Positions 1,416 through 61,860 are shown, counted from the stretch's first letter. The stretch: DNA of 64,000 nucleotides from Candidatus Moraniibacteriota bacterium (GCA_003483065.1 DMWY01000001.1:72606-136605); one strand, 5' to 3'. Notes: a model not told the origin generated them from the sequence alone. Made by a program: numbers and translations.

Positions 1416-3440
1416 ATGATGAATAAAAAGCAGAAATTTATTATCGATATAGTTCCATTGACCAAAATTCCGATGTCCTCCCATCAGTCTTTTTCCTATT
1501 TGTCAGATGCCAAAATTTCAATCGGAACATTGGTGTCGATTCCCCTTTTCCATAGAAGCGTGGAAGGGATTGTTTTGGGGACGAGGCAGGATTTTGAAAG
1601 ATTAGGTAATATTGAACTAAAAAAAATTGAAAAAATAATCGTTGAAAATTTTCTCTCTGATAGTCAAATAGAATTAGCGAAATTTATTTCCGATTACTAC
1701 ATTTCTCCCTTGGGCGTAGTGATGAAAAATTTTGTCCCGAAAAGAGCTAAAATAAGGAACAAAAAACCTGCCTCATCGGCAGGCAAGCAAAAAGAAATAA
1801 TTTTAACGCCTGAACAGAAAAATGCGATTGCGAAAATTTCACTACAAACTAAAAGCTACAAACTAGAAGCTAACAGCTATCTCCTCTTTGGTCCGGCTGG
1901 ATCGGGGAAAACTGAGGTTTATATAAATTCAATTTTGGAACTGCGAAAACAAAATAAAAATTTCCAATTCCTGATTATCATCCCAGAAAAAACTTTGACT
2001 CCACAGGCTATGGAAAGATATGGTGCATATTTTGAACCGGAAGAAATTGTTGTTCTTTCAAGTAATATTTCCAAAGGACAATTTTATTCTAATTGGAAAA
2101 AAATTCAATCTGGCGAGGCAAAACTTATTCTTGGCACTCGAATGGCGGTTTTTGCACCTTTCAAAAAATTAGGACTAATCGTGATTGATGAAGAGCAAGA
2201 TATGTCTTTCAAACAATGGGACATGAATCCGCGTTATGATGCTCGAACGGTAGCAGAAAAATTAGCCGAGATTCATGAGTGTAAAATTGTTCGCGGTAGT
2301 GCTACGCCAAGTATCGAATCCTATTATCGCGCAATTAACAAAGATTTAAAATTAGTAGAATTGCCGAAATTGCTTTTAGCGGACAGTCCGCTAGAGGGCG
2401 GACTGTCCGCGTCTATAAAAACACCCACTACTTCTATTGTCGATATGAAAAAAGAACGCTGGACGAAGAACTATACTTGCATATCAAGAAAACTAAAAGG
2501 TGAAATTGAATATGCGCTAAAAAATAAACAGCAATCAATTTTGTTCATCAATCGCCAAGGAATGAGCAGTTTTTCAATTTGTGAAGCGTGTAAGGCAGTG
2601 CTCAAATGTCCCAAATGTGAGCGGGCGCTAGTATATGAAAAAGGCGGATTCTACAAATGCAATCATTGTAATTATAAGACGAGTATTTTTCCAAAATGCG
2701 AGAAATGTGGTGGGATAAGTTTCAAAAATGTTGGATTAGGAACGCAAAAAGTAGAAAAAGAAATTTCGAGTTTGTTTCCTTTGGCCAAAATAATTGTGGC
2801 TGACACAGCCTCTTCAAAAGAACTAAATTTTCATGAAAAAATTTATGGCGCTTTTTCCAAAGGTGAGGCGGATATTTTGATTGGAACGCAGATGATTTCC
2901 AAGGGTTGGGATTTGCCTCGTGTGTCATTGGTTGGTATAATAGATGCAGATAATCTTTTGTCATTTCCTGATTTTTCGGCTGAAGAAAAGGCCTTTCAAA
3001 TAATCTCTCAGCTTGCCGGCAGAGTGAATCGCCCTGGTGCACGTTTTCCTGGAGAAGTTGTTATCCAAACATATCAACCGGAAAACAAAATCATCCAACT
3101 GGCATCAGAAAATAATTTTCAAAGTTTTTTTCAAAAGATAATCGAAGAACGAAAAGCTTTGAATTTTCCGCCTTATGGGAAAATTGTGAAATTAGTTTTT
3201 CAGGATTATAATTTTGAAAAAGTGGAAAAAGAAAGTCAAGACACATTTGAGAGTTTTGAAAATATAAAAGGGTTAAAGATTTCCGAACCACATACTCCCC
3301 TGCTCTCAAAAATAAGAGGACGCTGGCGAAAGCAAATGATTGTCAAATTTCCAGATAAAATTCCAATTGAATTAGAAAAAGAAATCAGAAAGCTCAAATC
3401 AGGCTGGGTAATAGATCGAGATCCAATATCTATCATTTGA
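1416..3440 (+). CDS. priA: primosomal protein N' (PriA helicase)
   Basis: Walker A (FGPAGSGKTEVY), DEAD-like VIDEEQD, Cys-rich zinc-binding segment (CEACK...CPKCE...CNHC...CEKC), helicase C-terminal motifs (QLAGRVNR). Confidence 0.9.
   Translation: MMNKKQKFIIDIVPLTKIPMSSHQSFSYLSDAKISIGTLVSIPLFHRSVEGIVLGTRQDFERLGNIELKKIEKIIVENFLSDSQIELAKFISDYYISPLGVVMKNFVPKRAKIRNKKPASSAGKQKEIILTPEQKNAIAKISLQTKSYKLEANSYLLFGPAGSGKTEVYINSILELRKQNKNFQFLIIIPEKTLTPQAMERYGAYFEPEEIVVLSSNISKGQFYSNWKKIQSGEAKLILGTRMAVFAPFKKLGLIVIDEEQDMSFKQWDMNPRYDARTVAEKLAEIHECKIVRGSATPSIESYYRAINKDLKLVELPKLLLADSPLEGGLSASIKTPTTSIVDMKKERWTKNYTCISRKLKGEIEYALKNKQQSILFINRQGMSSFSICEACKAVLKCPKCERALVYEKGGFYKCNHCNYKTSIFPKCEKCGGISFKNVGLGTQKVEKEISSLFPLAKIIVADTASSKELNFHEKIYGAFSKGEADILIGTQMISKGWDLPRVSLVGIIDADNLLSFPDFSAEEKAFQIISQLAGRVNRPGARFPGEVVIQTYQPENKIIQLASENNFQSFFQKIIEERKALNFPPYGKIVKLVFQDYNFEKVEKESQDTFESFENIKGLKISEPHTPLLSKIRGRWRKQMIVKFPDKIPIELEKEIRKLKSGWVIDRDPISII
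2379..2410. repeat. GC-rich perfect palindrome (GCGGACAGTCCGC-tagagg-GCGGACTGTCCGC) embedded in-frame in priA
   Basis: 13-bp arms are exact reverse complements. ~70% GC in a ~34% GC genome. Encodes ...ADSPLEGGLSAS..., an extra loop relative to PriA homologues. Confidence 0.7.
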
Positions 3441-3442
3441 AC

Positions 3443-3474
3443 ATGTTAATATGTTAAAATGCTAAAATGATTTT
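3443..3474 (+). promoter_or_regulatory. tandem ATGYTAA heptamer array / extended -10-like (TGCTAAAAT) element abutting the def start codon
   Basis: atgttaatatgttaaaatgctaaaat-gatttt-ATG. TGnTAAAAT lies 6 nt before the ATG, which predicts a leaderless or near-leaderless transcript. The same motif family recurs at 56656-56747, 61428-61452 and 61813-61860. Confidence 0.4.
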
Positions 3475-3915
3475 ATGATTTTACCAATAATAACCTATCC
3501 AAATGAAATTCTTCGTCAAAAAGCGAAGAAGATAAAAGAACCAAAAAGTCGAGAAATAAAGGACTTGATTTTGGATATGCTTGAAACTATGGAAGATAGT
3601 GGTAATGCGTTGGGACTAGCTGCTCCGCAGGTGGGACAATCAGTGCAACTTTGTATTATAAAATTAGATGGAAAAACGCATATTCTAATCAACCCAAAAA
3701 TTGCTAGAAAATCTTGGGGAAAAGAAATTTGCGAAGAAGGTTGTTTGTCTTTTCCTGGGAAATTTATCCCAGTTAAGAGACACAAAAAAGTCACCGTGAA
3801 GGCTTTGGACAAAAAAGGAGAAAAAATTGAAATCAAAGCTGAGGGACTTCTCTCGCGAGCTTTGCAACACGAGATTGATCATTTAAATGGGATGCTTTTT
3901 ATAGACAAAAAATAA
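3475..3915 (+). CDS. def: peptide deformylase
   Basis: GLAAPQVG, EGCLSFPG and QHEIDHLNG metal-binding motifs. Confidence 0.9.
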   Translation: MILPIITYPNEILRQKAKKIKEPKSREIKDLILDMLETMEDSGNALGLAAPQVGQSVQLCIIKLDGKTHILINPKIARKSWGKEICEEGCLSFPGKFIPVKRHKKVTVKALDKKGEKIEIKAEGLLSRALQHEIDHLNGMLFIDKK

Positions 3916-9522: not shown

Positions 9523-9531
9523 AATTTTCTT

Positions 9532-9564
9532 TACTAATTACTAATTTATTAAGAATATACTAAT
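9532..9564. repeat. TACTAAT heptamer array upstream of obg
   Basis: Three TACTAAT copies at 9532, 9539 and 9558. Related to the TACGAAT arrays at 11045, 54288 and 58173. Confidence 0.5.
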
Positions 9565-9614
9565 GCATTATTGTTTATATACTATACTGCAAATTTATTA
9601 ATTAGTAAAGGAAA

Positions 9615-11044: not shown

Positions 11045-11093
11045 TACGAATTACGAATCTATACGAATCTATACGAATGTACGAATTTACGAA
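11045..11093. repeat. TACGAAT heptamer array upstream of cysS
   Basis: Five TACGAAT copies spaced 7-11 bp within 50 bp. Confidence 0.6.
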
Positions 11094-11116
11094 AAATAAG
11101 AAATTTTAAAAAATTT

Positions 11117-42275: not shown

Positions 42276-44129
42276 CTATTTTTTCAATACTGACAAAAAA
42301 GCTTCTGGCGGGATAGAAACTCGCCCAATATTCTTCATTTTCTTTTTGCCTTTTTTCTGTTTTTCTAAAAGTTTTCTTTTTCTAGTGATATCCCCACCAT
42401 AAAGTCCACTAATCACATCTTTTCGAAAAGCCTTAATAGTTTCTCTGGCAATTATTTTTCCACCAATAGAAGCCTGGATAGCCACTTGAAAATTTTGTCG
42501 AGGGATAACATCTTTGAGTTTTGTCACTACTCTTTTTCCTTCTGAATTAGCCTTTTCTCTTGGCACAATCCGCGAAAAAGCTTCAATTTTTTCTTCCGCT
42601 ACTAAAATGTCCATTTTTACCAAATCATATGAGCGATAATCTTTGACTTCATAATTCATCGAAGCATAGCCCGAAGAAGCACTTTTCAAATCATCATGCA
42701 AATTTGTCACCACATCTGTGAGTGGACAATCAAATTTAATCACCATTCTTTCGCTGTCCAGATATTCAGTGTCTTGATACTGTGCTCGAGTATTGTTCAT
42801 TACTTCCATAATCGGACCTAGATAATTAGAAGGAGAAACAATTTCCAAGCTCACATATGGCTCAAAAACCTCTTCTATTTCAGAAGGATCAGGAAATTCT
42901 GTCGGTGAATAAACTTTGATTCGCCCCTTATCATTTCGCAGTTTTATTTCATAAACAACACTGGGAGTAGTGACGGTTGGATTGATTTGGAATTCTCTTT
43001 GCAAGCGAGATTGAATAATTTCTAAATGCAAAAGTCCCAAAAATCCGCAACGAAAACCACGTCCCAAGGCTAAATTAGATTCTGGTTCAAAAACAAATGA
43101 GGCATCATTGAGCTTGAGTTTGTCGAGTGAATCACGCATCAAATTATAGTCATCACCTTCGACTGGATAGAAACTGGCATAAACCATCGGCACCACCTCC
43201 TTGTACCCAGGTAGTGGAACTACCTGGGTCGCAGACTCACGCAGACTTGACGCTGACCTTCGCTGAATTTTTTCCGCGTTTTTCCGCGTTCCGTCCGCGT
43301 TAGTCCGCGACGTAATCGTATCGCCTACCTTGCATTCCCCGACGCTTTTGAGTCCTGTGGCAATATAGCCAATTTCACCTACGGAAAGTTTTTCTGCTTT
43401 CACAAGTTCTGGCTTGAAATAACCTACTTCAATCACATCACTTTTTTTGTCATTTATCATCATAATAATTTCTTCTTCGGCCCGAATTTCGCCGTCAAAA
43501 ACCCGCACATGCGCCAACACACCCTTATAGGTATCATATTTTGAATCAAAAATAAGTGCCCGCAAAGTTTTTTGAGAATCTCCAATAGGCGCCGGAATTT
43601 TTTCCACAATTATTTCCAAAAGTTTGGCAACGCCCTGTCCGGTCTTACCAGAAACTTCCAAAATTTCTTCTTCTTTGCACCCCAAGATATGCACTATTTC
43701 TTTTTTGACTTTTTCTACGTTTGCATTTGGCAAATCAATTTTGTTGACCACAGGAATAATTTCCAAATTATGCTCAATGGCTTGATAGAGATTAGCCAAG
43801 GTTTGCGCCTGCACACCCTTGGTCGCATCCACCAAAAGCACTGCCCCTTCTACCGCTGCGAGTGACCGCGAAACTTCATACCCAAAATCCACATGTCCTG
43901 GGGTGTCAATTAAGTTGAAAATATACTCCTTATAATTCATGCGCACGGGTTGCATCTTAATGGTAATCCCTCGTTCCCGTTCCAAATCCATCTGATCCAA
44001 AAGTTGCTCTTTCATTTTGCGTTTTTCAATCGTCCCTGTCATTTCCAACATCCGATCAGACAAAGTCGATTTCCCATGGTCAATGTGAGCGATTATGCAA
44101 AAATTTCGAATATTGTTTTTTTCTGACAT
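42276..44129 (-). CDS. lepA: translation elongation factor 4 (LepA)
   Basis: G-domain (AHIDHGKST, DTPGHVDF) and the LepA-specific C-terminal domain. Confidence 0.9.
   Translation of the reverse strand: MSEKNNIRNFCIIAHIDHGKSTLSDRMLEMTGTIEKRKMKEQLLDQMDLERERGITIKMQPVRMNYKEYIFNLIDTPGHVDFGYEVSRSLAAVEGAVLLVDATKGVQAQTLANLYQAIEHNLEIIPVVNKIDLPNANVEKVKKEIVHILGCKEEEILEVSGKTGQGVAKLLEIIVEKIPAPIGDSQKTLRALIFDSKYDTYKGVLAHVRVFDGEIRAEEEIIMMINDKKSDVIEVGYFKPELVKAEKLSVGEIGYIATGLKSVGECKVGDTITSRTNADGTRKNAEKIQRRSASSLRESATQVVPLPGYKEVVPMVYASFYPVEGDDYNLMRDSLDKLKLNDASFVFEPESNLALGRGFRCGFLGLLHLEIIQSRLQREFQINPTVTTPSVVYEIKLRNDKGRIKVYSPTEFPDPSEIEEVFEPYVSLEIVSPSNYLGPIMEVMNNTRAQYQDTEYLDSERMVIKFDCPLTDVVTNLHDDLKSASSGYASMNYEVKDYRSYDLVKMDILVAEEKIEAFSRIVPREKANSEGKRVVTKLKDVIPRQNFQVAIQASIGGKIIARETIKAFRKDVISGLYGGDITRKRKLLEKQKKGKKKMKNIGRVSIPPEAFLSVLKK
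43205..43312. repeat. GC-rich hairpin plus TCCGCGT direct repeats embedded in-frame in lepA
   Basis: ACCCAGGTAG-tggaa-CTACCTGGGT (43205-43229) then four TCCGCG(T) copies (43268-43312). Encodes ~20 extra residues (DGTRKNAEKIQRRSASSLRESATQV) between conserved GDTIT and PLPGYKEV. Confidence 0.65.
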
Positions 44130-44192: not shown

Positions 44193-45029
44193 TTAATCTA
44201 GCGGACTTTTAATTTTTCTCAAGGCTGGATTAGTCACTTTGGTATAAATTTGTGTTGTTCTAATGTTAGCATGCCCCAAGAGCTCTTGTACATAGCGCAC
44301 GTCTGTTCCATTTTCGAGTAAGTGTGTCGCAAAACTATGTCGAAGTGAATGAAATGTGGCTTCTTTTTTTATCCCCGCTTTTTTCATGGCATTTTCAAAA
44401 ACTTTTTGCGCTGTCCTCTCGGTTAATTTCCCCTGCCTCATCGGCAGACAAGCTCCGCGTTCACTGGCAAAAAAATAATCATTAGAATTTTTATTGGCAA
44501 TTAATTTTTCTACATCCGCCACGAGCTTTTCCGGAAAAACCGTAATGCGATCTTTGTTGCCTTTAGCTCCTTTGATATGAATGATAAGTTCCGCCAAATT
44601 TATATCCTTGATTTTCAAATTAATAATCTCACTCACGCGTAGCCCTCCAGAATATGCCAACGCCACCATTAATTTGTGTTTTTCATTGGAAATTTCCGCC
44701 AATATTTTTCCAATTTCATCTCGAGACAAAACGATCGGTAATTTACTTGGCGTTTTGGCGAAATGAATGTCAATTTTTCCTCTATATTTCAAAACATTCC
44801 AACAGAAAAAGTTTATCGCTTGCAAATTTTGATTAGTAGTTTGTGACGACTTCCCATCATCAATTTTGGACAATATATATCGCTTGATAAAATCAATGTC
44901 TACTTTTCCAAAATTATCTTTTTTGGCTTTTAGATAATTTTCAACACAAGCCGAATATGCTTTCACAGTTTTTGGACTATATTTTCTCAATCTCAACTCA
45001 TCTTCTAATTTTTTCAAATAGACGTCCAT
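44193..45029 (-). CDS. tyrosine recombinase (XerC/XerD-like integrase)
   Basis: Full catalytic set R...K...HxxR...H...Y (GGLRVSE, GAKGNKDR, HSLRHSFATH, LGHANI, TQIYTKV). 278 aa. Confidence 0.8.
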   Translation of the reverse strand: MDVYLKKLEDELRLRKYSPKTVKAYSACVENYLKAKKDNFGKVDIDFIKRYILSKIDDGKSSQTTNQNLQAINFFCWNVLKYRGKIDIHFAKTPSKLPIVLSRDEIGKILAEISNEKHKLMVALAYSGGLRVSEIINLKIKDINLAELIIHIKGAKGNKDRITVFPEKLVADVEKLIANKNSNDYFFASERGACLPMRQGKLTERTAQKVFENAMKKAGIKKEATFHSLRHSFATHLLENGTDVRYVQELLGHANIRTTQIYTKVTNPALRKIKSPLD

Positions 45030-45237
45030 TGATTTTTTTGCTATAATAAAATTGTAATAAAATTATACACAATATTCGCAAACTTAGCAATATTATGTAC
45101 ACTATACGAAAACACTTCGCATATAAAAGAGTTAGCTGAAATATTTTTTTGTCTTTGGTGGTGATTTAAAATTTTAGTGCATTGAACAAAGACGAAAATT
45201 TGATTTTTTATTTATTTTAAGAGGGGTAAAAAGGAAT

Positions 45238-45822
45238 ATGTTTCAATATATAGTTTTAATCGGAGCGGTCGTGCAGTTGGTTGGTATATATGTTTATATT
45301 AGAGCAACTGTCCGTGGCGAAACAAAACCAAATAGAGTCACTTGGCTGATGTGGTCTGTGGCGCCATTGATTGGATCCGTCGCAGCTTTTTCTGACGGTG
45401 TTCGTTGGGCAGCGCTTCCAGTCTTCATGTCTGGTTTTGCGCCACTTCTTGTTTTCATTGCTTCTTTTGTAAATCCCAAATCATTTTGGAAGCTGGAAAA
45501 ATTTGATTATATTTGTGGAGCTTGTTCAATTTTGGCATTAGTTCTTTGGGGGATTACAAAAGAACCATTGATTGCGATTATTTTTTCAATCGCCAGTGAT
45601 GGATTTGCGGCAGTGCCAACTATTATTAAATCTTGGAAGCACCCAGATTCTGAATCTGTTGAAGCTTACACCACTGGATTGTTCAACTCATTGACGAGTT
45701 TTTTTGCACTGAGAACATTTGGTATTTCAGAACTGGCTTTTCCAATATATTTAGTTTTGGTAAATTCATCGTTGATTGCCGCCGTCTACAAAGGACGATT
45801 GAAAAAAATAATCGCAAAATAA
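45238..45822 (+). CDS. polytopic membrane protein, unknown function
   Basis: ~6 hydrophobic helices. Confidence 0.45.
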   Translation: MFQYIVLIGAVVQLVGIYVYIRATVRGETKPNRVTWLMWSVAPLIGSVAAFSDGVRWAALPVFMSGFAPLLVFIASFVNPKSFWKLEKFDYICGACSILALVLWGITKEPLIAIIFSIASDGFAAVPTIIKSWKHPDSESVEAYTTGLFNSLTSFFALRTFGISELAFPIYLVLVNSSLIAAVYKGRLKKIIAK

Positions 45823-45940
45823 GGAGTTTTGAATTTTGGGCATTCACCCCTGACCCCTCTGCCCAAAATCCAAAACAAAAATCAAATTTTCTATTAGAAT
45901 AAGCAAAGTTTGTGCTAATAAAATAGAAGACAAAAAAATA

Positions 45941-46030
45941 CATCAGCTAACACGGCATATCTGGTTCAGAAATTTTGCACATATAATAAAATAAGGAAGG
46001 CAAAACTTCTTCTCCCAAATTGCGCTGTGG
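45941..46030. repeat. ~95-bp structured intergenic repeat, copy 1
   Basis: CATCAGCTAACACGGCATATCTGGTTCAGAAATTTTGC-loop(AAGGAAGG)-GCAAAACTTCTTCTCCCAAAT. Copies at 46920-47010 and 47780-47922 show compensatory changes in the hairpin arms. Confidence 0.6.
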
Positions 46031-46099
46031 CAAGACAAAGTTTAGTGATATAATTAAGTCAGGTGGAAATTTGAAGTTTTAGCCAATAAATATGGGCGC

Positions 46100-46310
46100 A
46101 ACTTCAGATGATGCCGAAACGATATGCAAAATGTCTCTCCCTACGGTCGTTCCATTTTGCATATCGTGCGCGCCTGACGGACGCTGACATGCTCTGTGCC
46201 GTCCCTTCGGGAGCGACACATCGCATATCAGCGCCTATCCAAAATTTCCCTTCGAAAACCCTTCGGGATTTTCTCGGAAAACTTCGGATCAGGCGCGCAC
46301 GTTAAACGAA
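46100..46310. ncRNA. candidate structured RNA of unknown class (GC-rich)
   Basis: Perfect 14-bp hairpin CGATATGCAAAATG/CATTTTGCATATCG (46120-46166). An 11-bp long-range helix TGCGCGCCTGA (46167-46177) / TCAGGCGCGCA (46289-46299) encloses several CCC-TTCG-GGA tetraloop hairpins. ~55% GC in a ~34% GC background. Strand undetermined. Confidence 0.35.
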
Positions 46311-46440
46311 ATTTTGTTCAAAAATATTTTTTCATTTTATATTTGAGCCCTTTTGAAATTTTTTGGGAAAGAAAAAACCGCCTTGGAAAACCTTGGCGGA
46401 AGCAGTTGGTCTGCTCAGTCCATGTACGAAATTAGTTGGG

Positions 46441-46773
46441 TTAAAGATTGACACGCCAGCACCTACCTAAGTAATCAGAAAATTCTTGGGAAGTCATATC
46501 TCCGTCATGAATGTCAACATTGATACATAAAGTATCACTATAATTAAAGTACTGGTATCCAACAACCTCAAAACGCATAAACACATTGGCATGCCCGCCA
46601 GTAGCTTTATCTTTTTCTCCATCAATAACTTCAATAATAGTGCCAATTGGCAATATTACCGATGAGGAGGGTAAGTCGAGAAAGTACTCAAAAGAGTCGT
46701 CGACATCTTTCCAAAAGGCATGATTTTTTTCTTCGTTAACTGAATTATTGTTGATACAAAGAACAAATTTCAT
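46441..46773 (-). CDS. hypothetical acidic cytoplasmic protein (110 aa)
   Basis: Start reassigned to the ATG at 46773, preceded by AGGAGG. No recognisable domain. Confidence 0.45.
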   Translation of the reverse strand: MKFVLCINNNSVNEEKNHAFWKDVDDSFEYFLDLPSSSVILPIGTIIEVIDGEKDKATGGHANVFMRFEVVGYQYFNYSDTLCINVDIHDGDMTSQEFSDYLGRCWRVNL

Positions 46774-46919
46774 CTTCCTTCCTCCTGTTGTTGGATTTAA
46801 TGTGCTATTTGACGGGAAATTAGCGTTCAAAGTAGTATAGCAGAAAACGCTTATCCTGTCAAGACCACGAAAAAAAATTCAAAAGGGCTTTTTAATAAGG
46901 AGTATATTTTTGAACAAGA

Positions 46920-47010
46920 CATCGTTTAACAAAGAATATCTGGTTCAAAAAATTTGCCGCAGTTAAAACTAAAAGGAGGGCAAATTTTTCTCTCCCAAAT
47001 CCCGCACTTT
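46920..47010. repeat. ~95-bp structured intergenic repeat, copy 2
   Basis: CATCGTTTAACAAAGAATATCTGGTTCAAAAAATTTGCC-loop(AAGGAGGG)-GGCAAATTTTTCTCTCCCAAAT. Confidence 0.6.
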
Positions 47011-47232
47011 TCCGTTTCGCTGTAATTTAGAGTATAATGAGATTAATAAATCAATAGGAATGTTAAGGTTTTGTGCTTAAAAACCAAAGTGCAGGACTTC
47101 AGATATTCTTAAGCGTTATGCGAAAAAACTAAAAATTTACTCTCTATTTTGAAAAGAATTTTTGGCAATTTTGCTGGTCGATAACTTGGTGTATAATATA
47201 AATAAGTTTTAATAAATTAATTTAAAGTAATT

Positions 47233-47733
47233 ATGAATCAAAAAAACATTATTGCAATTTTAGGAGTTGCTGTAGTAATTTTGCTCGGCACAACTATATA
47301 TTTTGCAACAATAAGCAATGTTAGTCAGCCAGCGCCAGTACCTGTGGTAAAACAGCCAGCAACTCCAGCTCCTATAGCGCAAACGCCAGCTACACCAGCA
47401 AATCAACAACCAGTTGCAACACAACCAACAACGACTAGTCAAAAAGTAGAAAGTAATGAAGAAATTGCAAAAAGAGTTTTGGGTTTTATTGAAGGAAAAA
47501 ATACTATCAAAATTGAAAAAACAGACGCGGATCATATTGTTGGAACAAAATGTGAAGAACCGAGCGCAGCAGACAAAGCCGCTGGCAGAGATATACCTTC
47601 CTGTGGTTATTTTTATTTAGCCAAAACAAATGGGAACTGGCAAAAAGTGCTTGAGGGAAATGGTGTAATAAAATGTAATTTATTGAAACAGTATAATTTT
47701 ACTGGTAGCATGTTAAATGGTTGTATAAATTAA
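47233..47733 (+). CDS. secreted/anchored protein with Pro/Ala/Thr/Gln-rich linker and 4-Cys C-terminal domain
   Basis: N-terminal TM/signal, PAPVPVVKQPATPAPIAQTPATPANQQP linker, C-terminal domain with four Cys. Confidence 0.5.
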   Translation: MNQKNIIAILGVAVVILLGTTIYFATISNVSQPAPVPVVKQPATPAPIAQTPATPANQQPVATQPTTTSQKVESNEEIAKRVLGFIEGKNTIKIEKTDADHIVGTKCEEPSAADKAAGRDIPSCGYFYLAKTNGNWQKVLEGNGVIKCNLLKQYNFTGSMLNGCIN

Positions 47734-47779
47734 GATTGCCAAAAATTCTTTATTTTCTAGGAAAGGAAATTTTTAGTTT

Positions 47780-47922
47780 CATCGCCTAACAAGTTGTATC
47801 AGGTTCCAGAAATTTGCCTCAATTATATTATTAAGGAGTGCAAATTTCTTCCACCCAAATTTTTGCCTTCCTTTTCTTTTTATATTACAATAAGGAAAGA
47901 AGGCAAAAACTTCTGATACAAC
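47780..47922. repeat. ~95-bp structured intergenic repeat, copy 3 (composite, bounded by a 10-bp terminal inverted repeat)
   Basis: GTTGTATCAG (47793-47802) ... CTGATACAAC (47913-47922). The interior carries one forward copy of the element plus an inverted partial copy (TTTTGCCTTCCTT / AAGGAAAGAAGGCAAAA). Confidence 0.55.
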
Positions 47923-48043
47923 TAACGTTATGTGAAATAGCCAGAAATTTCTTTTTTATTTTTTAAAATTTTTTTGGCAACTTATTTTCACGGTCGGCAT
48001 AATTTATAATACACAGGAATAATTATATTTAACTAAAATTTCT

Positions 48044-48274
48044 ATGAAAAAAATCTTGTGGATTATTGTATTGTTAATTACTATTATAATCATTGGCGTA
48101 GCTACATATTCAAAAATGCCACATTATAAAAAAATATGTTCCGATTACACCAAAAGAGAAGAATGCGTAAAAAATAGCCGTTGCGATTGGCCCGGCTCTT
48201 CTTGTGCGGTACCAGGAAAAAATTGTGGATTCACTTATGACCCTGAGAAGGATAGGTGCCTGCCAAAAAAATAA
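48044..48274 (+). CDS. small secreted Cys-rich protein (76 aa, 6 Cys)
   Basis: N-terminal TM/signal, then CSDYTKREECVKNSRCDWPGSSCAVPGKNCGFTYDPEKDRC. Confidence 0.45.
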   Translation: MKKILWIIVLLITIIIIGVATYSKMPHYKKICSDYTKREECVKNSRCDWPGSSCAVPGKNCGFTYDPEKDRCLPKK

Positions 48275-48520
48275 TAAGGGCTTTAGGTGACGGGTAAACA
48301 TCATGGTCCTCTTTCAGATAGTATTAATAAAAAGGCTCCGGTGTTCAAAGATGGACAGATACCTTGAGGTAGTGTTATATTTATTATCGGTGCTTTTTAT
48401 TTTTGGATAAGCTTATAAATTCATATCTAGTATGTTATGTTGAGATGTCGTGCAATGACGCCTTGATTTTTAGGACATCTGTAGTATACTTGAATCATAA
48501 ACAATTAGGCACTAAGCATT

Positions 48521-54283: not shown

Positions 54284-54287
54284 AAAT

Positions 54288-54330
54288 TACGAATTACTAA
54301 TCTTGTACGAATGTACGAATAATTACTTAC
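54288..54330. repeat. TACGAAT heptamer array
   Basis: TACGAAT at 54288, 54306 and 54314 plus TACTAAT, immediately upstream of the GT4 start at 54283. Confidence 0.55.
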
Positions 54331-55551: not shown

Positions 55552-56655
55552 TTATTTAACAAGGCGAAATTCCTTCCATTCCTTATCAATATATTCCTTT
55601 ATTCTAGCCTTAAATATCTCTTTGTCAAATTTAAAAACTCTTTGCCTGATATAATCCGGGTCATAATCAGAATTTTTGAATTTTCTAACTGCTTCAATTA
55701 AATCCTCAGCTGTTTGATGCGCAAAAAACACTCCTGTTTTCCCTTCTTCCATATGTTCAAGAATGTCGCCACCATCATAGGCAATAAGCGGTGTGCCTGA
55801 AGCCATAGCCTCAATAGCAGTAAGTCCAAAATCTTCTTCTTGTGGAAAGATAAACGCTTGGCAACGAGAAAAATATTTTTGCAATTCTTCGTCGCTAACT
55901 CGTCCAAGAATTTTAATATTTGGCCCAGCCATTTTTTTAAGTCTTTCCATTTCTGGTCCACGCCCAAGAATTCTAAGTGGTAATCCTAATTTATTGAAAG
56001 CTTCGATAGCAATATCAAAACGTTTATACGCCATCAAACGCCCGGCAATCAAAAAATAATCATCTTTTTCGCGACTAATTTTGAAATTATTAACATTCAC
56101 CGGCGGATTTATCACAACACTTCCTCGTCTGAAATATTTTTTTATCCGGCGCGAAACAAAAAAAGAATTAGCAATTATTTTATCCGGTCGTTCGGCGCTT
56201 ACTCGATCCCAAATCCGAATATAATTCATAAAAAATGGCACGAGCTTTTTGATAAAATTAGGAAAATAAAAATCGCGATTGTATTTTTGGCAATCATCCC
56301 AAGCAAAACGCATTGGCGTGTGCATATAACAAATATGCAAAGTTTTTGGCCCCGTAATTATGCCTTTGGCAAAACTAGAAGAATCAGATAATACAATATC
56401 ATAATCAGAAAAATCAAATTGTTCAATGGCAAAAGGCATAAATTGCGGAAAAATTCGATGCCTTCCCACCGCAAAAGGGATTTTTTGCAAAAAAGAAGTC
56501 TTGATTTTTTTGTCCGCAAAACTGCCATGCATCAGTTTTTTGCTATAAACAAGGGTGTATATTGGCGCATAGGGAAAAAGCTCACAAAAAGCTTCTAGCA
56601 CTTTTTCCGCTCCCCCATTTTGAACAAGATAATCGTGGACTAAAGCAATCTTCAT
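55552..56655 (-). CDS. glycosyltransferase family 4
   Basis: EDFGLTAIEAMASGTPLIA GT4 signature. Confidence 0.85.
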   Translation of the reverse strand: MKIALVHDYLVQNGGAEKVLEAFCELFPYAPIYTLVYSKKLMHGSFADKKIKTSFLQKIPFAVGRHRIFPQFMPFAIEQFDFSDYDIVLSDSSSFAKGIITGPKTLHICYMHTPMRFAWDDCQKYNRDFYFPNFIKKLVPFFMNYIRIWDRVSAERPDKIIANSFFVSRRIKKYFRRGSVVINPPVNVNNFKISREKDDYFLIAGRLMAYKRFDIAIEAFNKLGLPLRILGRGPEMERLKKMAGPNIKILGRVSDEELQKYFSRCQAFIFPQEEDFGLTAIEAMASGTPLIAYDGGDILEHMEEGKTGVFFAHQTAEDLIEAVRKFKNSDYDPDYIRQRVFKFDKEIFKARIKEYIDKEWKEFRLVK

Positions 56656-56747
56656 TTTAGCATATTAGCATTTTAGCATATTAGCATCAGTATTATACGC
56701 ATTTTATTTTTGTTAAAATGTTAATAAGCTAATATGTTAAAATGATC
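56656..56747 (-). promoter_or_regulatory. ATGCTAA heptamer array / tandem extended -10-like elements abutting the GT4 start codon
   Basis: The minus strand reads ...TATAATACTG ATGCTAATATGCTAAAATGCTAATATGCTAAAATG|AAG. A 14-mer unit (TGCTAATATGCTAAAA) is repeated twice, and the opposite-orientation motif TTTTTGTTAAAATGTTAA is also present. Confidence 0.45.
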
Positions 56748-58163: not shown

Positions 58164-58172
58164 GTTATTCTT

Positions 58173-58205
58173 TACGAATTACTAATCTCTTACTAATATA
58201 CTAAT
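58173..58205. repeat. TACGAAT/TACTAAT heptamer array upstream of the priming transferase
   Basis: TACGAAT at 58173; TACTAAT at 58180, 58191 and 58199. Confidence 0.5.
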
Positions 58206-58296
58206 TTTAATCAAATTTAATCAGTGGTGGAAAAATAATAAACTCACATTAGTATATTCGTATAAAATTCGTAATTGGTAAAGATTTTGAGCATAT

Positions 58297-58647
58297 ATCA
58301 AGGCAAATCTATAAGCCGGATTTTGTCGAGAATGATCATTTATCTAGTCCCGATATTACTATCGGGATCAAGCGGTACTTCTTATTCTTACTAGTGTAGA
58401 ACAAGACACGACCTTGCATCCAGGTAAGGATTTAGCCGTTTCACCCCAATATTACTATTGGATTCGCCCCGCCCTTTATAAATAAAAAGCTGGGTGCTCA
58501 ACCTTTCGGTTTCGCACGTCTCTGCTCGCACCTCTTAGATTGCTCTAGATGGGTGTTACCCACTACCCTTTCCGCCTCTTCGGCGGATAAATGTCCGGAC
58601 TTTCCTCTCTGACTTTACGTCAGGGCGATCATTCAATTTGCCTTGAT
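58297..58647 (-). ncRNA. rnpB: RNase P RNA (bacterial type A)
   Basis: The minus strand reads GAGGAAAGTCCGGAC (P4 5' strand), GGGTAACACCC, AGAGCAA and the 3' P4 strand ACAAAATCCGGCTTATAG. P1 pairs 5' CAAGGCAAAT with 3' ATTTGCCTTG. ~351 nt, ORF-free and GC-enriched. Confidence 0.8.
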
Positions 58648-58787
58648 ATATGCCTAAAATTTTATGCAAAAAAATCAAAACACATTTTTTTGCCTTTTTT
58701 AAGCCATTTTTTAAATATTCCTACCTGTTTATACTAGCACAATATGTATGATTTGTAAACCCTAAAGCCAAACACCAAAATCAAGCG

Positions 58788-61427
58788 TTAAGAAAGCTTT
58801 TTTAGATTATCAAGCAAATCTTTTTGCGATTTTAATTTCTCCCTGTATTCAGCAAGTTTAATCTTATTATTTTCCACAATTTCTTTCGGCGCGCTGGCGA
58901 GGAAATTTTTGTTGGCGAGAAGGGCGCTGTTTTTGGCAATCAAATTTTCCAGATTGGTAATTTCTTTGTAAAAATTTTTCTTTTCTTTTTCCACATCAAT
59001 CAATTCCGCAATATCTAAAACTATTTTCAAATCTTTTCCGGAAATTTCAATCCCCTGTTTTTTTGCATCAGAAAATTTAACTCGTCCTAATTTTTCAATT
59101 ATCTCTTGATTTTTGAGTTTTTTTGCATACGCCTCAATGATTTCACTTGGCGCAATACGATAACTAGACCGAATATTTCGAATTTTACCGATTATTTCCT
59201 GCAAGTTTTGAAATTCTTTTTCCGCTTTTTTATTAATTAGTTTTTTGTCCGATACCGGCCACTTTTCAACCATTAATATTTTGACTTTTTTATTCGTAGC
59301 ATTCGCATGTATTCGCAGATTCGCATCGCCATATATTTTTTCCGTCACAAACGGCATAAACGGATGCCAAAGTTTTAATATTTTCTCCAAAACATATCCC
59401 AAAACCTTGTCATTTTTTTCAAGTTTGTGAATTTCAAGGTACCATGAAGCCAGATCATCCCAAGTAAATTTAATGAGAATATTTTCTGCCATGGCAATAT
59501 TTTTATTCTCCAGCATTTTTGATGCTTCCAAAATCGCCTGATTAACTCGGGAAACAATCCAACTATCCGCCAAACTTTTCAAATCATGTCTAGAAATTTT
59601 TTCTTCTAGTTTAAAATTTTCATTTGAGCTGAAACTATAGCGATAGATATTCCAAAGCTTGGTCACGAAATTTCGATATTTTTCTATTTTTTCTTCATAG
59701 AGTCGCGTATCAAGTCCGGGGGTTGTATCAGTAATAAGACTCATACGAAGCGCATCCGCTCCATACTTCTCAATCATTTGCAAGGGATCAACTCCATTGC
59801 CTTTAGATTTTGACATCTTAAGACCGTCTTTATCTCTAATCAGTCCAGTGAAAAATAAATTCTTAAACGGCACCTTACCGGTTCGATATAGTCCCATCAT
59901 AATCATCTTAGAAGCCCAGAAAAAAAGTAGGTCGCGTCCTGTAACCATCATTTCGGTTGAATAAAAATCTTTATAGTCTTTGCCTTTTGGATAACCCAGA
60001 GTTGTATATGGCCATTGACCAGAAGAAAACCAAGTGTCAAAAGTATCCTGATCTTGAATCAATTCTGCTCCCTTGCATTTCGGACATTTTTTTGGCTTTT
60101 CAATTGAAACAATGTAATTCTCCTCTCCACATTTTTCACAATACCATACTGGAATTTGCGGTCCCCACCAAATTTGGCGCGAAATACACCAATCATGCAA
60201 ACCCGAAAACCATTGCGTCATTATTTTTCCAAAACTTTTCGGATAAACTTCAATCTTCCCTGTTTTGATTGCTTTCAAAGATTCTTTTTTTAGCGAATAC
60301 TTTTTTGCATCCACATTCACAAACCATTGCTTGGAAATTAGAGGCTCAATCGTTTCCTTGCAACGCTCACAAATTGATTTATTGATTTCATTCTCTTCTA
60401 TTTTTTCAATAAGGCCAAACTCAGTCAAATCGCGTACAATATTTTCCCGTGCCTCTTCAACTTTTTGCCCAACATATTTCCCGCCTAATTTTGTAATCTC
60501 GGCTTTTTCATTAATCACTTGAATTTCTTGGAGTTTATGATCCTTGCCAATTTGCCAGTCCAGCGGATCATGCGCCGGAGTAATTTTCACCGCGCCTGTA
60601 CCAAATTCCATTTCCATTCTTCTGTCCGAAATAATTGGAATTTCTCGATTTTGCAAAGGCAAGATAACGATTTTTCCCACTAATTTTTCAAAGCGCTTGT
60701 CTTTTGGATTAACTGCCACGGCCGTATCACCCAGCATCGTTTCTGGACGCGTCGTTGCAACCGTGATAAATTGCTTGGAATCTTTCAAGGGATATTTTAT
60801 ATAGTATAATTTTCCGGCTGTTTTCTTGTGAAGCACTTCCACATCTGAAAGTGCAGTGGAACATCTAGGGCACCAGTTGATTATTCTTTCTCCGCGATAA
60901 ATCATTCCGTCCTTTTCCATCTTGACAAAAGTTTCCAGTGCCCGAGAAAGAACATCTGGATCGAGTGTGAATTTTTCTCGCGACCAATCAGCGCTAATAC
61001 CAATTTTCTTTTCTTGCGCGCGCATATAGTTCGATCGATCAATACAAAAGTCATAAATCTCCTTGTAGAATTTTTCTCGCCCTAAATCATATCGGGAAAT
61101 CCCCCGTTCTGCTTTGATTTTTTTTTCATAAACTACTTGCGACTGAATTCCGGCGTGATCTTTTCCTGGAAAAAGCAAAACTTTCTCCCCTTTCATGCGA
61201 TGATAGCGACCAAAAATATCCATCACGGTGTAACCTGAAGCATGCCCAAGATGAAGCTCTCCATTAGCATTCGGTGGTGGCAAAATATTGCAATATTTTT
61301 TTCGATTTTTATCTTCAGCCCAAGGCTGACAGGTATCCGGGTTGAAAAACCCACTCTCCTCCCAGAGCTTATATATCTCGTCCTCATATTTATTCGCTTC
61401 GTATGTTTTTGAAATTTCCCTAATCAT
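58788..61427 (-). CDS. valS: valyl-tRNA synthetase
   Basis: PPPNANGELHLGHA (HIGH), KMSKSKGN, editing and anticodon-binding domains, C-terminal coiled coil. Confidence 0.9.
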   Translation of the reverse strand: MIREISKTYEANKYEDEIYKLWEESGFFNPDTCQPWAEDKNRKKYCNILPPPNANGELHLGHASGYTVMDIFGRYHRMKGEKVLLFPGKDHAGIQSQVVYEKKIKAERGISRYDLGREKFYKEIYDFCIDRSNYMRAQEKKIGISADWSREKFTLDPDVLSRALETFVKMEKDGMIYRGERIINWCPRCSTALSDVEVLHKKTAGKLYYIKYPLKDSKQFITVATTRPETMLGDTAVAVNPKDKRFEKLVGKIVILPLQNREIPIISDRRMEMEFGTGAVKITPAHDPLDWQIGKDHKLQEIQVINEKAEITKLGGKYVGQKVEEARENIVRDLTEFGLIEKIEENEINKSICERCKETIEPLISKQWFVNVDAKKYSLKKESLKAIKTGKIEVYPKSFGKIMTQWFSGLHDWCISRQIWWGPQIPVWYCEKCGEENYIVSIEKPKKCPKCKGAELIQDQDTFDTWFSSGQWPYTTLGYPKGKDYKDFYSTEMMVTGRDLLFFWASKMIMMGLYRTGKVPFKNLFFTGLIRDKDGLKMSKSKGNGVDPLQMIEKYGADALRMSLITDTTPGLDTRLYEEKIEKYRNFVTKLWNIYRYSFSSNENFKLEEKISRHDLKSLADSWIVSRVNQAILEASKMLENKNIAMAENILIKFTWDDLASWYLEIHKLEKNDKVLGYVLEKILKLWHPFMPFVTEKIYGDANLRIHANATNKKVKILMVEKWPVSDKKLINKKAEKEFQNLQEIIGKIRNIRSSYRIAPSEIIEAYAKKLKNQEIIEKLGRVKFSDAKKQGIEISGKDLKIVLDIAELIDVEKEKKNFYKEITNLENLIAKNSALLANKNFLASAPKEIVENNKIKLAEYREKLKSQKDLLDNLKKLS
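59292..59330. repeat. ATTCGCA/TGCGAAT triple repeat inside valS (in-frame)
   Basis: ATTCGTAGC ATTCGCATGT ATTCGCAGATTCGCATCGCC. Encodes GDANLRIHANATN. Resembles the intergenic repeats at 17869-17950 and 36229-36267 (CTGCGAAT..ACATGCGAAT). Confidence 0.45.
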
Positions 61428-61452
61428 CTTAACATTTTAGCATATTAACATT
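61428..61452 (-). promoter_or_regulatory. ATGYTAA heptamer array / extended -10-like element abutting the valS start codon
   Basis: The minus strand reads GGAAATGTTAAAATGTTAATATGCTAAAATGTTAAG|ATG. Confidence 0.4.
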
Positions 61453-61812
61453 TTAACATTTCCTTATTGATTCCATTGATTTCCATAGCATGGCACCAAT
61501 TTCGTCTGCCAACTTGATTGATTTTTTATAGTCATTGTCAGTATAATATTTTTCAACTAAAGCAAAATGCAGGAGATACATCGATTCTTTTAAAGATCCG
61601 TATGATATTTCCCAGAAATTTAGTTTAACCATTTGCTTTTTTCTAGCAAAACCTTCTAAGTAATTCAGAATTACAGACAAAGACGACCGCCTTAATTGAG
61701 AAGTTACTCCATACAATTCTTCTTTCGGAAAATTCTTAGTAATCCTATAGCACAAATGTGCATATTCATCCATTTTAATTTTTAATTGATGCGGAAAATC
61801 ATTATTGGTCAT
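61453..61812 (-). CDS. four-helix-bundle protein (TIGR02436 / 23S rRNA intervening-sequence protein family; DGR Avd-like fold)
   Basis: YRITKNFPKEELYGVTSQLRRSSLSVILNYLEGFARK...ISYGSLKESMYLL signature of this family. Confidence 0.75.
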   Translation of the reverse strand: MTNNDFPHQLKIKMDEYAHLCYRITKNFPKEELYGVTSQLRRSSLSVILNYLEGFARKKQMVKLNFWEISYGSLKESMYLLHFALVEKYYTDNDYKKSIKLADEIGAMLWKSMESIRKC

Positions 61813-61860
61813 GTTTATTTTTGTTAAAATGCTAAAATGTTAGCATGCTAAAATGTTTTT
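61813..61860. promoter_or_regulatory. ATGCTAA/TTAGCAT heptamer array between the four-helix-bundle gene and pheT
   Basis: TTTATTTTTGTTAAAATGCTAAAATGTTAGCATGCTAAAATG; shares TTTATTTTTGTTAAAATG with 56706-56730. Confidence 0.4.

Follow-up and report, generated by a model that had tools for sequence, protein, structure and literature searches.

Introduction

Integrons place a divergent tyrosine recombinase gene beside an array of small cassettes that share one orientation, and cassettes without an open reading frame (ORF) and the Vibrio cholerae repeats are among the described forms. Their attC sites, 57-141 nt in length, are imperfect palindromes (R''-L''...L'-R') in which a spacer stays unpaired and the terminal structure varies, with branches in some sites. 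An AAC/GTT triplet is conserved at the junction within an RYYYAAC/GTTRRRY consensus, and the start of a cassette is complementary to its own R'' box. From crystal-structure work on IntI4, the IntI-specific domain reportedly holds the extrahelical bases of attC. The attC bottom strand is the more stable of the two, with an excess of G:T pairs and a purine skew (Nivina et al., PMC5027507). Folded DNA is also used by the CTX phage, where Xer enzymes act on a folded single strand of two inverted dif-like sites (PMC4246890). Here we describe a GC-rich element of 180 nt without an ORF, located at 46122-46301 (+) of a 64,000-nt stretch from a Candidatus Moraniibacteriota bacterium (GCA_003483065.1, DMWY01000001.1:72606-136605; the whole stretch is called the window). 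The element is probably a gene-free, site-only cassette in an integron-like array beside an Xer/IntI-like recombinase of Moranbacteria.

Three further systems bear on the locus. In CTX attP(+), inverted dif-like arms about 100 nt apart allow a folded single strand of about 150 nt to mimic the duplex site for Xer enzymes that lack an IntI domain; one strand is exchanged at a skew switch, replication completes the reaction, and integration is irreversible. In Acinetobacter pdif modules, genes bracketed by alternating recombinase-arm-like inverted repeats undergo modular shuffling at conserved 28-bp duplex XerC/XerD plasmid sites (XerC-6 bp-XerD). Large GC-rich non-coding RNAs (ncRNAs) and UNCG-capped RNA domains form multi-branched, covarying and highly stable folds with CUUCGG motifs. 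PMC8138268 lists only a 'Cand' subgroup of Xer-related recombinases, and our searches of the open-access literature yielded no account of cassette arrays linked to Xer enzymes in Patescibacteria.

Results

The GC-rich stretch is a conserved, multi-branched structure

A first-pass annotation of the window, made from its sequence, had reported a GC-rich structured RNA candidate at 46100-46310. Inspection of this span reveals a GC content of 51%, rising to 57% at 46166-46300, against 35.9% for the whole window; the earlier figure of ~55% is slightly too high for the full span. The perfect 14-bp hairpin described at 46120-46166 is present exactly (CGATATGCAAAATG at 46120-46133 with CATTTTGCATATCG at 46153-46166, +). 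The long-range helix, previously given as 11 bp (46167-46177 with 46289-46299), exists and is one pair longer, with 12 bp formed between GTGCGCGCCTGA (46166-46177) and TCAGGCGCGCAC (46289-46300) on the + strand, such that G46166 is common to both helices. The stem-loops with UUCG-type tips said to lie within it correspond to two composite, multi-stem hairpins tipped by CCCTTCGGG-type loops. With RNA parameters the + strand folds to -83.4 kcal/mol (z = -6.9 versus shuffles) and the - strand to -115.6 kcal/mol (z = -12.6); the values with DNA parameters are -50.1 (z = -8.0) and -57.3 (z = -10.3), respectively. No shuffle matched the native fold in any of these four tests.

Comparative folding, proposed earlier as a check, was performed on 12 homologues with shuffles and slid alignments as controls, and the helices covary in these relatives. 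Paired cells make up 94.6% of the alignment, compared with 78% in the shuffle control and 29-50% in the slid controls, and both-sided changes occur in 26 of 42 pairs, a count reached by 0 of 500 shuffles. The closing helix P1 (the long-range helix above) shows both-sided changes in 9 of 11 pairs with 98.5% of cells paired, while hairpin A shows them in 9 of 14 pairs and hairpin H1, among relatives, in 5 of 10. The folded stretch is a real, conserved, multi-branched structure. The closest relatives (loci L032, L042 and L054) are 75-82% identical and differ by indels of 1-2 nt. A protein-coding reading of the ORFs that overlap the element was rejected, since these indels shift the frame between close homologues and no frame is open across the family; the earlier view of the ORFs as artefacts agrees with this result.

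Searches of the RNA databases returned nothing relevant at the locus, whether at gathering score or at E <= 10. Rfam 15 at E <= 10 over 45500-46900 gave no match to a described bacterial family at the element, the only gathering-score match in the window is RNase P (58296-58644, -), and an ARAGORN scan found no tRNA or tmRNA. The previous statement that the element is not a tRNA, RNase P or signal recognition particle RNA thus agrees with Rfam and ARAGORN, which give none of these at the locus.

The element has cassette-like borders and boxes

The borders of the element lie at G46121|A46122 and G46301|T46302. Hairpin H1 (46121-46165, +) consists of the cassette start arm GATATGCAAAATG (46121-46133), a 19-nt loop (46134-46152) and the complement CATTTTGCATATC (46153-46165), which forms a first R''-like box and abuts P1; the start arm reads (G)ATATGCAAAATG. 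A three-way structure follows at 46166-46300 (+) and folds into P1 (46166-46177 with 46289-46300), which is the equivalent of an L box, hairpin B (46183-46232) and hairpin A (46238-46288). Hairpin B, seen in single-sequence folds only, holds a second R''-like box, CATCGCATATC (46219-46229), that is also complementary to the start arm. Hairpin A holds TATCCAAAAT...AACTTCGGAT, which mimics TATACGAAAA...CTTCGCATA of the attI-like site near the recombinase gene. A minimal relative, L030, has H1 plus a GTGCGCGCCTG-C-CAGGCGCGCAC hairpin only. The payload is only ~19 nt, so that the start arm pairs with its complement into the perfect 14-bp hairpin even in the integrated state; the hairpin is most likely the R box of a cassette that carries next to no payload.

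The 3' half of the element (46220-46311) matches a hidden Markov model (HMM) of the att-site core with E = 5.8e-12. Across the 64-kb window this core HMM has exactly four matches, the other three being AT-rich repeats at 45942-46131 (E = 6.5e-15), 46921-47125 (E = 4e-12) and 47781-47937 (E = 1.2e-13, fold z = -9.4). The first of these is the repeat copy of ~95 bp that had been placed directly upstream of the element, and it is real, with the extent given by the HMM. Each repeat starts with CATC-NNNN-AAC and ends with ACTTC-(11 nt)-(3-5 nt)-GTT-NNNN-GAAAT, and the HMM consensus of the site reads ATC-NNNN-AAC-A-L''...ACTTC-L'-spacer-GTT-NNNN-GAAA. The 11-nt boxes pair with compensatory changes among copies (GGCATATCTGG with CAGATGATGCC, AAGAATATCTG with CAGATATTCTT, and AGTTGTATCAG with CTGATACAACT), and repeat copies 2 and 3 fold to the same three-way shape.

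Inverted repeats of 25-30 nt bracket each ORF of the array, with one arm beginning GTT and the other finishing AAC. The first cassette starts with GTTAGCTGAAAT... at 45131-45155, which is complementary to 45927-45951, and the corresponding arms of the following gene cassettes are 46301-46327 with 46904-46930 and 47115-47144 with 47761-47790. This is the geometry of integron cassettes, because the bases that follow the crossover complement the cassette's own distal site.

Sites and elements are confined to arrays upstream of the recombinase gene

We compared the window with 80 related Patescibacteria loci, all collected via the recombinase and derived from metagenome-assembled genomes (MAGs). 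The core HMM of the 3' half finds 148 sites in 306 kb upstream of recombinase homologues and 0 in 614 kb downstream, and all 148 lie on one strand. The divergent layout of recombinase gene and array is present in all related loci that have upstream sequence. Iterated nhmmer searches starting from the element gathered a GC-rich family in at least 25 loci, in every case upstream of the recombinase gene and in the orientation seen in the window. The family HMM scores the homologues at E = 1e-47 to 1e-17 in at least 25 other loci, and the window copy, which itself seeded the search, at E = 8e-51. The element directly abuts the conserved attI-like site in 20 loci of the family match list, and GC content together with nhmmer matches leads us to estimate that about one third of evaluable arrays open with a GC-type element. 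Scans of viral contigs for the element and for the attI-like site gave 0 matches. A 34-nt subfamily pattern, which is too stringent to gauge prevalence, matched only 2 metagenome contigs, each with a full-length element beside part of a core site; the flanks retrieved for them (~2 kb) contain no recombinase gene.

The ~100 nt upstream of the recombinase gene are conserved among the 80 loci to ...TATACGAAAACACTTCGTATATAAACGAG and diverge after the next TT. Of the 80 contigs, 30 stop no more than 450 nt upstream of the recombinase gene, and 0 stop within that distance downstream. Patescibacteria MAGs thus break systematically at the attI-like site, which is the expected effect of a population-variable region on assembly. 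In the two relatives whose recombinase-murJ interval was inspected, the interval carries unrelated genes: glyoxalase, HEAT and Fic genes in L008, and restriction-modification, SET and HD genes in L011.

The junctions follow the same logic across loci. The four variable bases after G|TT are a perfect (4/4) reverse complement of the variable bases in the R'' box of the next site in 34 of 54 consecutive pairs (63%), which lie 60-6,300 bp apart, compared with 9 of 90 for same-site controls and 7.9% for random pairs. Elements are also present or absent as discrete units. Locus L021 equals L014/L031 plus a ~215-nt GC-type element between attI ...GAG and TTAGCTG, and it aligns to them at 1-117 (the attI-like region) and again from 332 on, with 97% identity in the first cassette. 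The strain at L002 encodes an identical recombinase protein and shares 96% nucleotide identity through cassette 1, without the GC-rich element; the two sequences part within copy 1, and another cassette occupies the element's place. In L033 (Wolfebacteria, CP011209), three identical copies are interspersed among different cassettes, with identity from TTACGC to ...CTCCACG.

Strand bias and loop motifs favor a folded bottom DNA strand

All 22 of 22 family members fold better on the bottom (window -) strand than on the top, with a margin of 6-49 kcal/mol and more G:U/G:T pairs, and of 109 non-redundant sites 93 are likewise more stable on the bottom strand. In the cassette, the top strand contains 40 G, 56 C, 38 A and 46 T, leaving purines enriched on the bottom strand. 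Among the loop motifs counted in 20 non-redundant family members, GCGNAGC has 38 occurrences on the bottom strand, where about 1.2 are expected, and 2 on the top. C-GNA-G occurs 85 times (20 expected), and the 23 instances of C(UNCG)G on the top strand are a subset of the latter. The window copy has five C-GNA-G motifs and no exact GCGNAGC. GCGNAGC and d(GNA) loops closed by C-G are described as 'extraordinarily stable' DNA mini-hairpins (PMC13037366, PMC3201870). At the level of the family, motif and strand signals therefore favor a folded bottom DNA strand over a UUCG-capped RNA. The motifs that had been called UUCG tetraloops are present, while their reading as RNA gives way to DNA mini-hairpins, as the opposite and better-folding strand reads C-GNA-G or GCGNAGC. 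The folded, single-stranded bottom strand may thus serve as a recombination substrate, and an additional role as RNA beside that of a recombination site is conceivable.

The neighboring recombinase is related to XerA and IntI4

The gene order is lepA (42276-44129, -), the recombinase gene (44193-45029, -) and then small + strand ORFs spaced by repeats of ~150-200 nt, with the array starting at 45132, about 100 nt upstream of the divergent recombinase gene. The encoded tyrosine recombinase of 278 amino acids (aa) matches PF00589 and PF13495 in Pfam. Among NCBIfam models it scores 221 bits with XerA_Arch, 219 with TIGR02249 (integron integrase), 183 with XerD and 179 with XerC; the TIGR02249 match is split into two stretches and falls below the cut-off of 265. 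Comparisons with PDB structures give 147 and 140 bits for XerA, 135 for IntI4 (2a3v) and 89 for XerD. By these scores, integron integrases (IntI4) and XerA resemble the recombinase to a similar degree, and XerD resembles it less than either. The IntI-specific domain is absent, with IntI4 residues ~183-236 (including the insertion) unmatched and only ~18 recombinase residues in their place. For this reason we call the array an integron-like variant, and a true integron was rejected. Homologues 60-94% identical occur across Patescibacteria, and the recombinase gene adjoins lepA in those relatives whose gene tables were inspected.

Some bins contain two recombinase paralogues. In UBA4824 (L035 and L042) each has its own array, and of L020 and L073, which share a bin, the former has two to three sites and the latter one. 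Such pairs point either to bins of mixed strains or to genomes with two platforms each. The adjoining LepA also varies, with lengths of 569, 603, 617 (window) and 766 aa (L011) in close relatives. The LepA of L011 (10824-13124) has an inserted PDDEXK_3 domain, and lepA of L007 lies at 1044-2753. This variation suggests insertions within a conserved GTPase gene.

Discussion

Comparison with described systems

Like an integron, the locus combines a divergent tyrosine recombinase gene with a one-orientation array of small cassettes, and its sites are imperfect R''-L''...L'-R' palindromes with an unpaired spacer and a variable, sometimes branched, tip. The AAC/GTT triplet is conserved at the junction (GAT instead at the 5' junction of the window copy), cassette starts are complementary to their own R'' (34 of 54), site sequences are conserved within arrays, and the bottom strand shows the greater stability, G:T excess and purine skew known from attC. 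In contrast to integrons, the recombinase lacks the IntI-specific domain and stays below the NCBIfam integron-integrase cut-off, the host belongs to the Patescibacteria, and a dif-arm-like TTATGYGAAAT follows GTT in place of GTTRRRY; the variable positions include ATGC, GTGC, AGCT, AGGC and AAAC, most of which are not RRRY. The sites, at 92-205 nt, are longer than attC, and the element adds two nested R''-like boxes and GC-rich mini-hairpin tips.

The likeness to CTX attP(+) lies in the proposed use of a folded single strand by an Xer-family enzyme without an IntI domain, in the proposed exchange of one strand with completion by replication, and in the R''-L''/L'-R' arms with TTATGYGAAAT, which recall its inverted dif-like arms. 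Unlike CTX, the locus has no phage or replication module, cassettes of 0.2-4 kb are stacked in arrays, the target adjoins the recombinase gene, and cassettes appear excisable, given their presence/absence variation. The locus shares with pdif modules the bracketing of genes by alternating inverted arms and the modular shuffling; it differs in that one box is free in sequence, spacing is irregular (1 nt versus 3-5 nt) and folding signatures are strand-specific. From large GC-rich ncRNAs, which it resembles in its stable, branched and covarying fold with CUUCGG motifs, the element differs by having no Rfam family and no conserved transcription signals, by folding better on the opposite strand, and by borders that are recombination junctions.

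Proposed mechanism and significance

In the mechanism that we propose, the bottom (window -) strand would fold as single-stranded DNA, as in integrons and CTX-phage attP(+), into an imperfect hairpin composed of an R box (start arm plus R''), an L box (P1) and a branched tip with C-GNA-G mini-hairpins. The neighboring recombinase would bind this folded strand and, at the AAC/GTT triplet, carry out a single-strand exchange whose partner is either the double-stranded attI-like site or a second folded site, and replication would resolve the junction. A circularized cassette would join ...GCGCGCACG to ATATGCAAAATG. The high GC content and mini-hairpin tips would make the element unusually stable and probably highly recombinogenic, that is, a selfish or 'empty' cassette.

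A broader proposal, for which we judge the case to be evenly balanced, is that the arrays constitute a phylum-wide, previously undescribed gene-capture platform of the candidate phyla radiation (CPR), with an Xer/XerA-like recombinase lacking the IntI domain, GNA-capped bottom-strand hairpins and selfish site-only cassettes, and possibly a living relative of the Xer-to-IntI transition. If so, ultra-small, genome-reduced CPR bacteria would own a dedicated cassette-capture system, and the hypervariable island and recurrent assembly breaks beside a conserved recombinase gene would be explained. Integron-type single-strand recombination would extend to a recombinase without an IntI-specific domain, which would bear on the evolution of integron integrases from Xer-like enzymes, and the 180-nt gene-free cassette would be the minimal substrate in a testable model. 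For annotation, GC-rich 'structured RNA' islands in such arrays would have to be treated with caution as recombination sites.

Several observations weigh against the element being a site-only cassette of this kind. Without an IntI-specific domain, hairpin recognition would need other means, as for XerCD on CTX attP. The 5' junction of the window copy is G|AT and not G|TT, as is also the case in L032 and L042. Sampling was based on the recombinase, and the absence of sites elsewhere was tested on about 0.7 Mb. Some relatives (L008 and L033) hold genes between L'' and L', within the terminal structure, which is awkward for a simple hairpin substrate and would fit a double-stranded, alternating-site model better. 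Both covariation and G:U-type strand asymmetry are also expected of a minus-strand RNA, and a promoter-like site at 46027-46054 could drive plus-strand transcription through the element.

The last two points touch on the explanation that the element is a structured ncRNA of either strand, carried as cassette cargo or acting in cis (on recombinase expression or as a transcription insulator) and selected as RNA, which we regard as improbable. The very low minus-strand fold energy (z = -12.6), the covarying helices, the G:U excess on one strand in 22 of 22 members, the 23 plus-strand loops compatible with C(UNCG)G and the plus-strand promoter-like site upstream would all suit an RNA, as would the 20 loci of the match list in which the element immediately precedes the recombinase gene and lies on the sense strand of that gene. 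Yet Rfam gives no match at E <= 10, no promoter or terminator is conserved with the element, a terminator scan found no such site at its ends, and homologues are flanked by unrelated cassettes or the attI-like site. The UNCG-type loops and the better-folding strand fall on opposite strands, and the 38 GCGNAGC motifs, a DNA-specific stability motif, do not read as C(UNCG)G on the complementary strand. Covariation links the arms to cassette boundaries hundreds of bp distant, gene-carrying cassettes share the site, and both position and distance relative to the recombinase gene vary, the window element lying 1.1 kb away past an opposite-strand gene. The free-standing RNA (6S-like, small RNA or riboswitch) of the first-pass annotation fares no better: it has no Rfam counterpart, its edges are G|TT junctions and not transcript ends, and its 3' half belongs to an att-like repeat family that is confined to recombinase arrays in one orientation with discrete presence or absence.

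Recombination could also proceed on duplex DNA alone, with units similar to pdif modules or to integrative mobile elements exploiting Xer (IMEX) stacked at dif and the palindromes being inverted arms that need no single-strand folding. The recombinase is Xer-like and highly conserved, the sites have a dif-like layout (arm, about 6 bp, TTATGTGAAAT-type arm), arms alternate in orientation with genes in either interval type, and CTX, VGJ and TLC phages hijack Xer at dif (PMC4246890). We nevertheless give this explanation only a small chance, comparable to that of an RNA. The TTATGTGAAAT arm, which agrees with the E. coli XerD arm at 10 of 11 positions, adds to the dif-like appearance. The L-box sequence varies (GTGCGCGCCTGA versus GGCATATCTGG) and the arm spacers are unequal (1 nt versus 3-5 nt), which fits a folded site and not a 28-bp duplex site; bottom-strand stability and strand-specific mini-hairpins have no role in a pure duplex mechanism, and junctions fall at the arm border (G|TT), as with single-strand exchange. 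A chromosomal dif or IMEX site, suggested by the dif-like arms, is weakened further since there is no switch of GC skew or gene orientation at 45 kb: in this one MAG-derived contig, both flanks have negative skew and minus-strand genes. The site thus does not coincide with a terminus here, and we treat it as an attI-like platform; the recombinase could also resolve chromosome dimers elsewhere. Least probable by far is a miniature inverted-repeat transposable element (MITE), an insertion sequence remnant or a generic palindromic repeat that came to lie in the array by chance. Terminal inverted repeats (P1), a GC content above that of the host, several copies in some arrays (L033) and the lack of an ORF recall a MITE, but neither a target-site duplication nor a transposase is present, the element keeps strictly to the arrays in location and orientation, and the att core is shared with gene cassettes. 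The free covariation of P1 marks it as a helix, unlike a conserved end bound by a transposase, and a MITE was rejected on this ground together with the array-confined distribution.

The remaining array

The attI-like site, TATACGAA-aaca-CTTCGCATATA-AAAGAG|TTAGCTGAAAT, lies at 45103-45142 (+) with a putative crossover at G45131|T45132. Consensus scans place divergent promoter-like sites at 45019-45090, which by their sequence may serve both sides: an extended -10 site (45019-45047, +) reads into the array, and TTGCTA-17-TATAAT (45090-45062, -) reads into the recombinase gene. A TGnTAnAAT motif and a block with minus-strand hexamers recur in most related loci.

Cassette 1 (45132-46121, +) carries a membrane-protein ORF of 194 aa (45238-45822) and its own att-like site, copy 1 (45942-46131 by the HMM, +), whose boxes are R'' CATCAGCTAAC (45941-45951), L'' (45953-45964) and L' CAGATGATGCC (46105-46115). 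When this site is compared with its equivalent in L002 (874-1032), the ends (R''-L'' and L') are the same and the ~120-nt interiors are unrelated, as if site interiors were exchanged independently. Within the variable part of copy 1, the promoter-like site GTGGCA-16-TGATATAAT (46027-46054, +) faces the next cassette, and similar TATAAT-containing stretches are found in other sites, including the L002 equivalent. Such stretches may be cassette-borne promoters.

Beyond the GC-rich element, cassette 2 (46302-47115, +) starts with TTAAACGAAAT and contains a reverse ORF of 129 aa (46441-46830, -). A promoter-like site with 11 of 12 matches in the promoter scan (46862-46834, -) belongs to this ORF; the terminator scan called none for it, and a weak 5-bp GC stem with T6 lies at ~46370-46399. 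The att-like site of this cassette (46921-47125, +) is followed by cassette 3 (47116-47927, +), with an ORF of 166 aa (47233-47733) and the att-like site at 47781-47937. The last cassette-like unit (47928-48300, +) starts with TTATGTGAAAT and carries a Cys-rich ORF of 76 aa (48044-48274); it is taken as the array end because no terminal att-like site was detected there. In array order, the ORFs encode a membrane protein, a 129-aa protein of unassigned type, a secreted Pro/Thr-rich protein and a small Cys-rich secreted protein, and none of the four has a significant match in Pfam or NCBIfam. Two small ORFs downstream of the array, together with murJ, are also present in relative L008.

Payload can occupy either interval of a cassette, as shown by L008 and L033, where genes lie between L'' and L' and the start-arm interval is only ~15 nt. 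In L008 (8700-9400) the gene in this position encodes a 199-aa HEAT-repeat protein and is flanked by the palindrome GCGAGCTCGC; in L033 (7990-8520) it is a reverse ORF of 118 aa.

Other repeats in the window

Intergenic repeats with a period of 8 nt (CATTTTAGCATATTAGCAT...), unrelated to the att-like sites, are present at 3428-3477, 56653-56746, 61423-61459 and 61814-61857. Copies in either orientation surround genes at 56.7 kb and 61.4-61.9 kb, and the family may be a regulatory binding array. Intergenic repeats of the heptamer TACGAAT/TACTAAT are found at 9528-9565, 11061-11094, 54287-54320, 58172-58205 and 58247-58284, with copies flanking the region of the RNase P RNA gene. This gene (58296-58644, -) is itself bracketed by a 28-nt inverted repeat (58281-58308 with 58636-58663, 89% complementary), which lengthens the terminal P1 pairing of the RNA well past the ends of the Rfam model.

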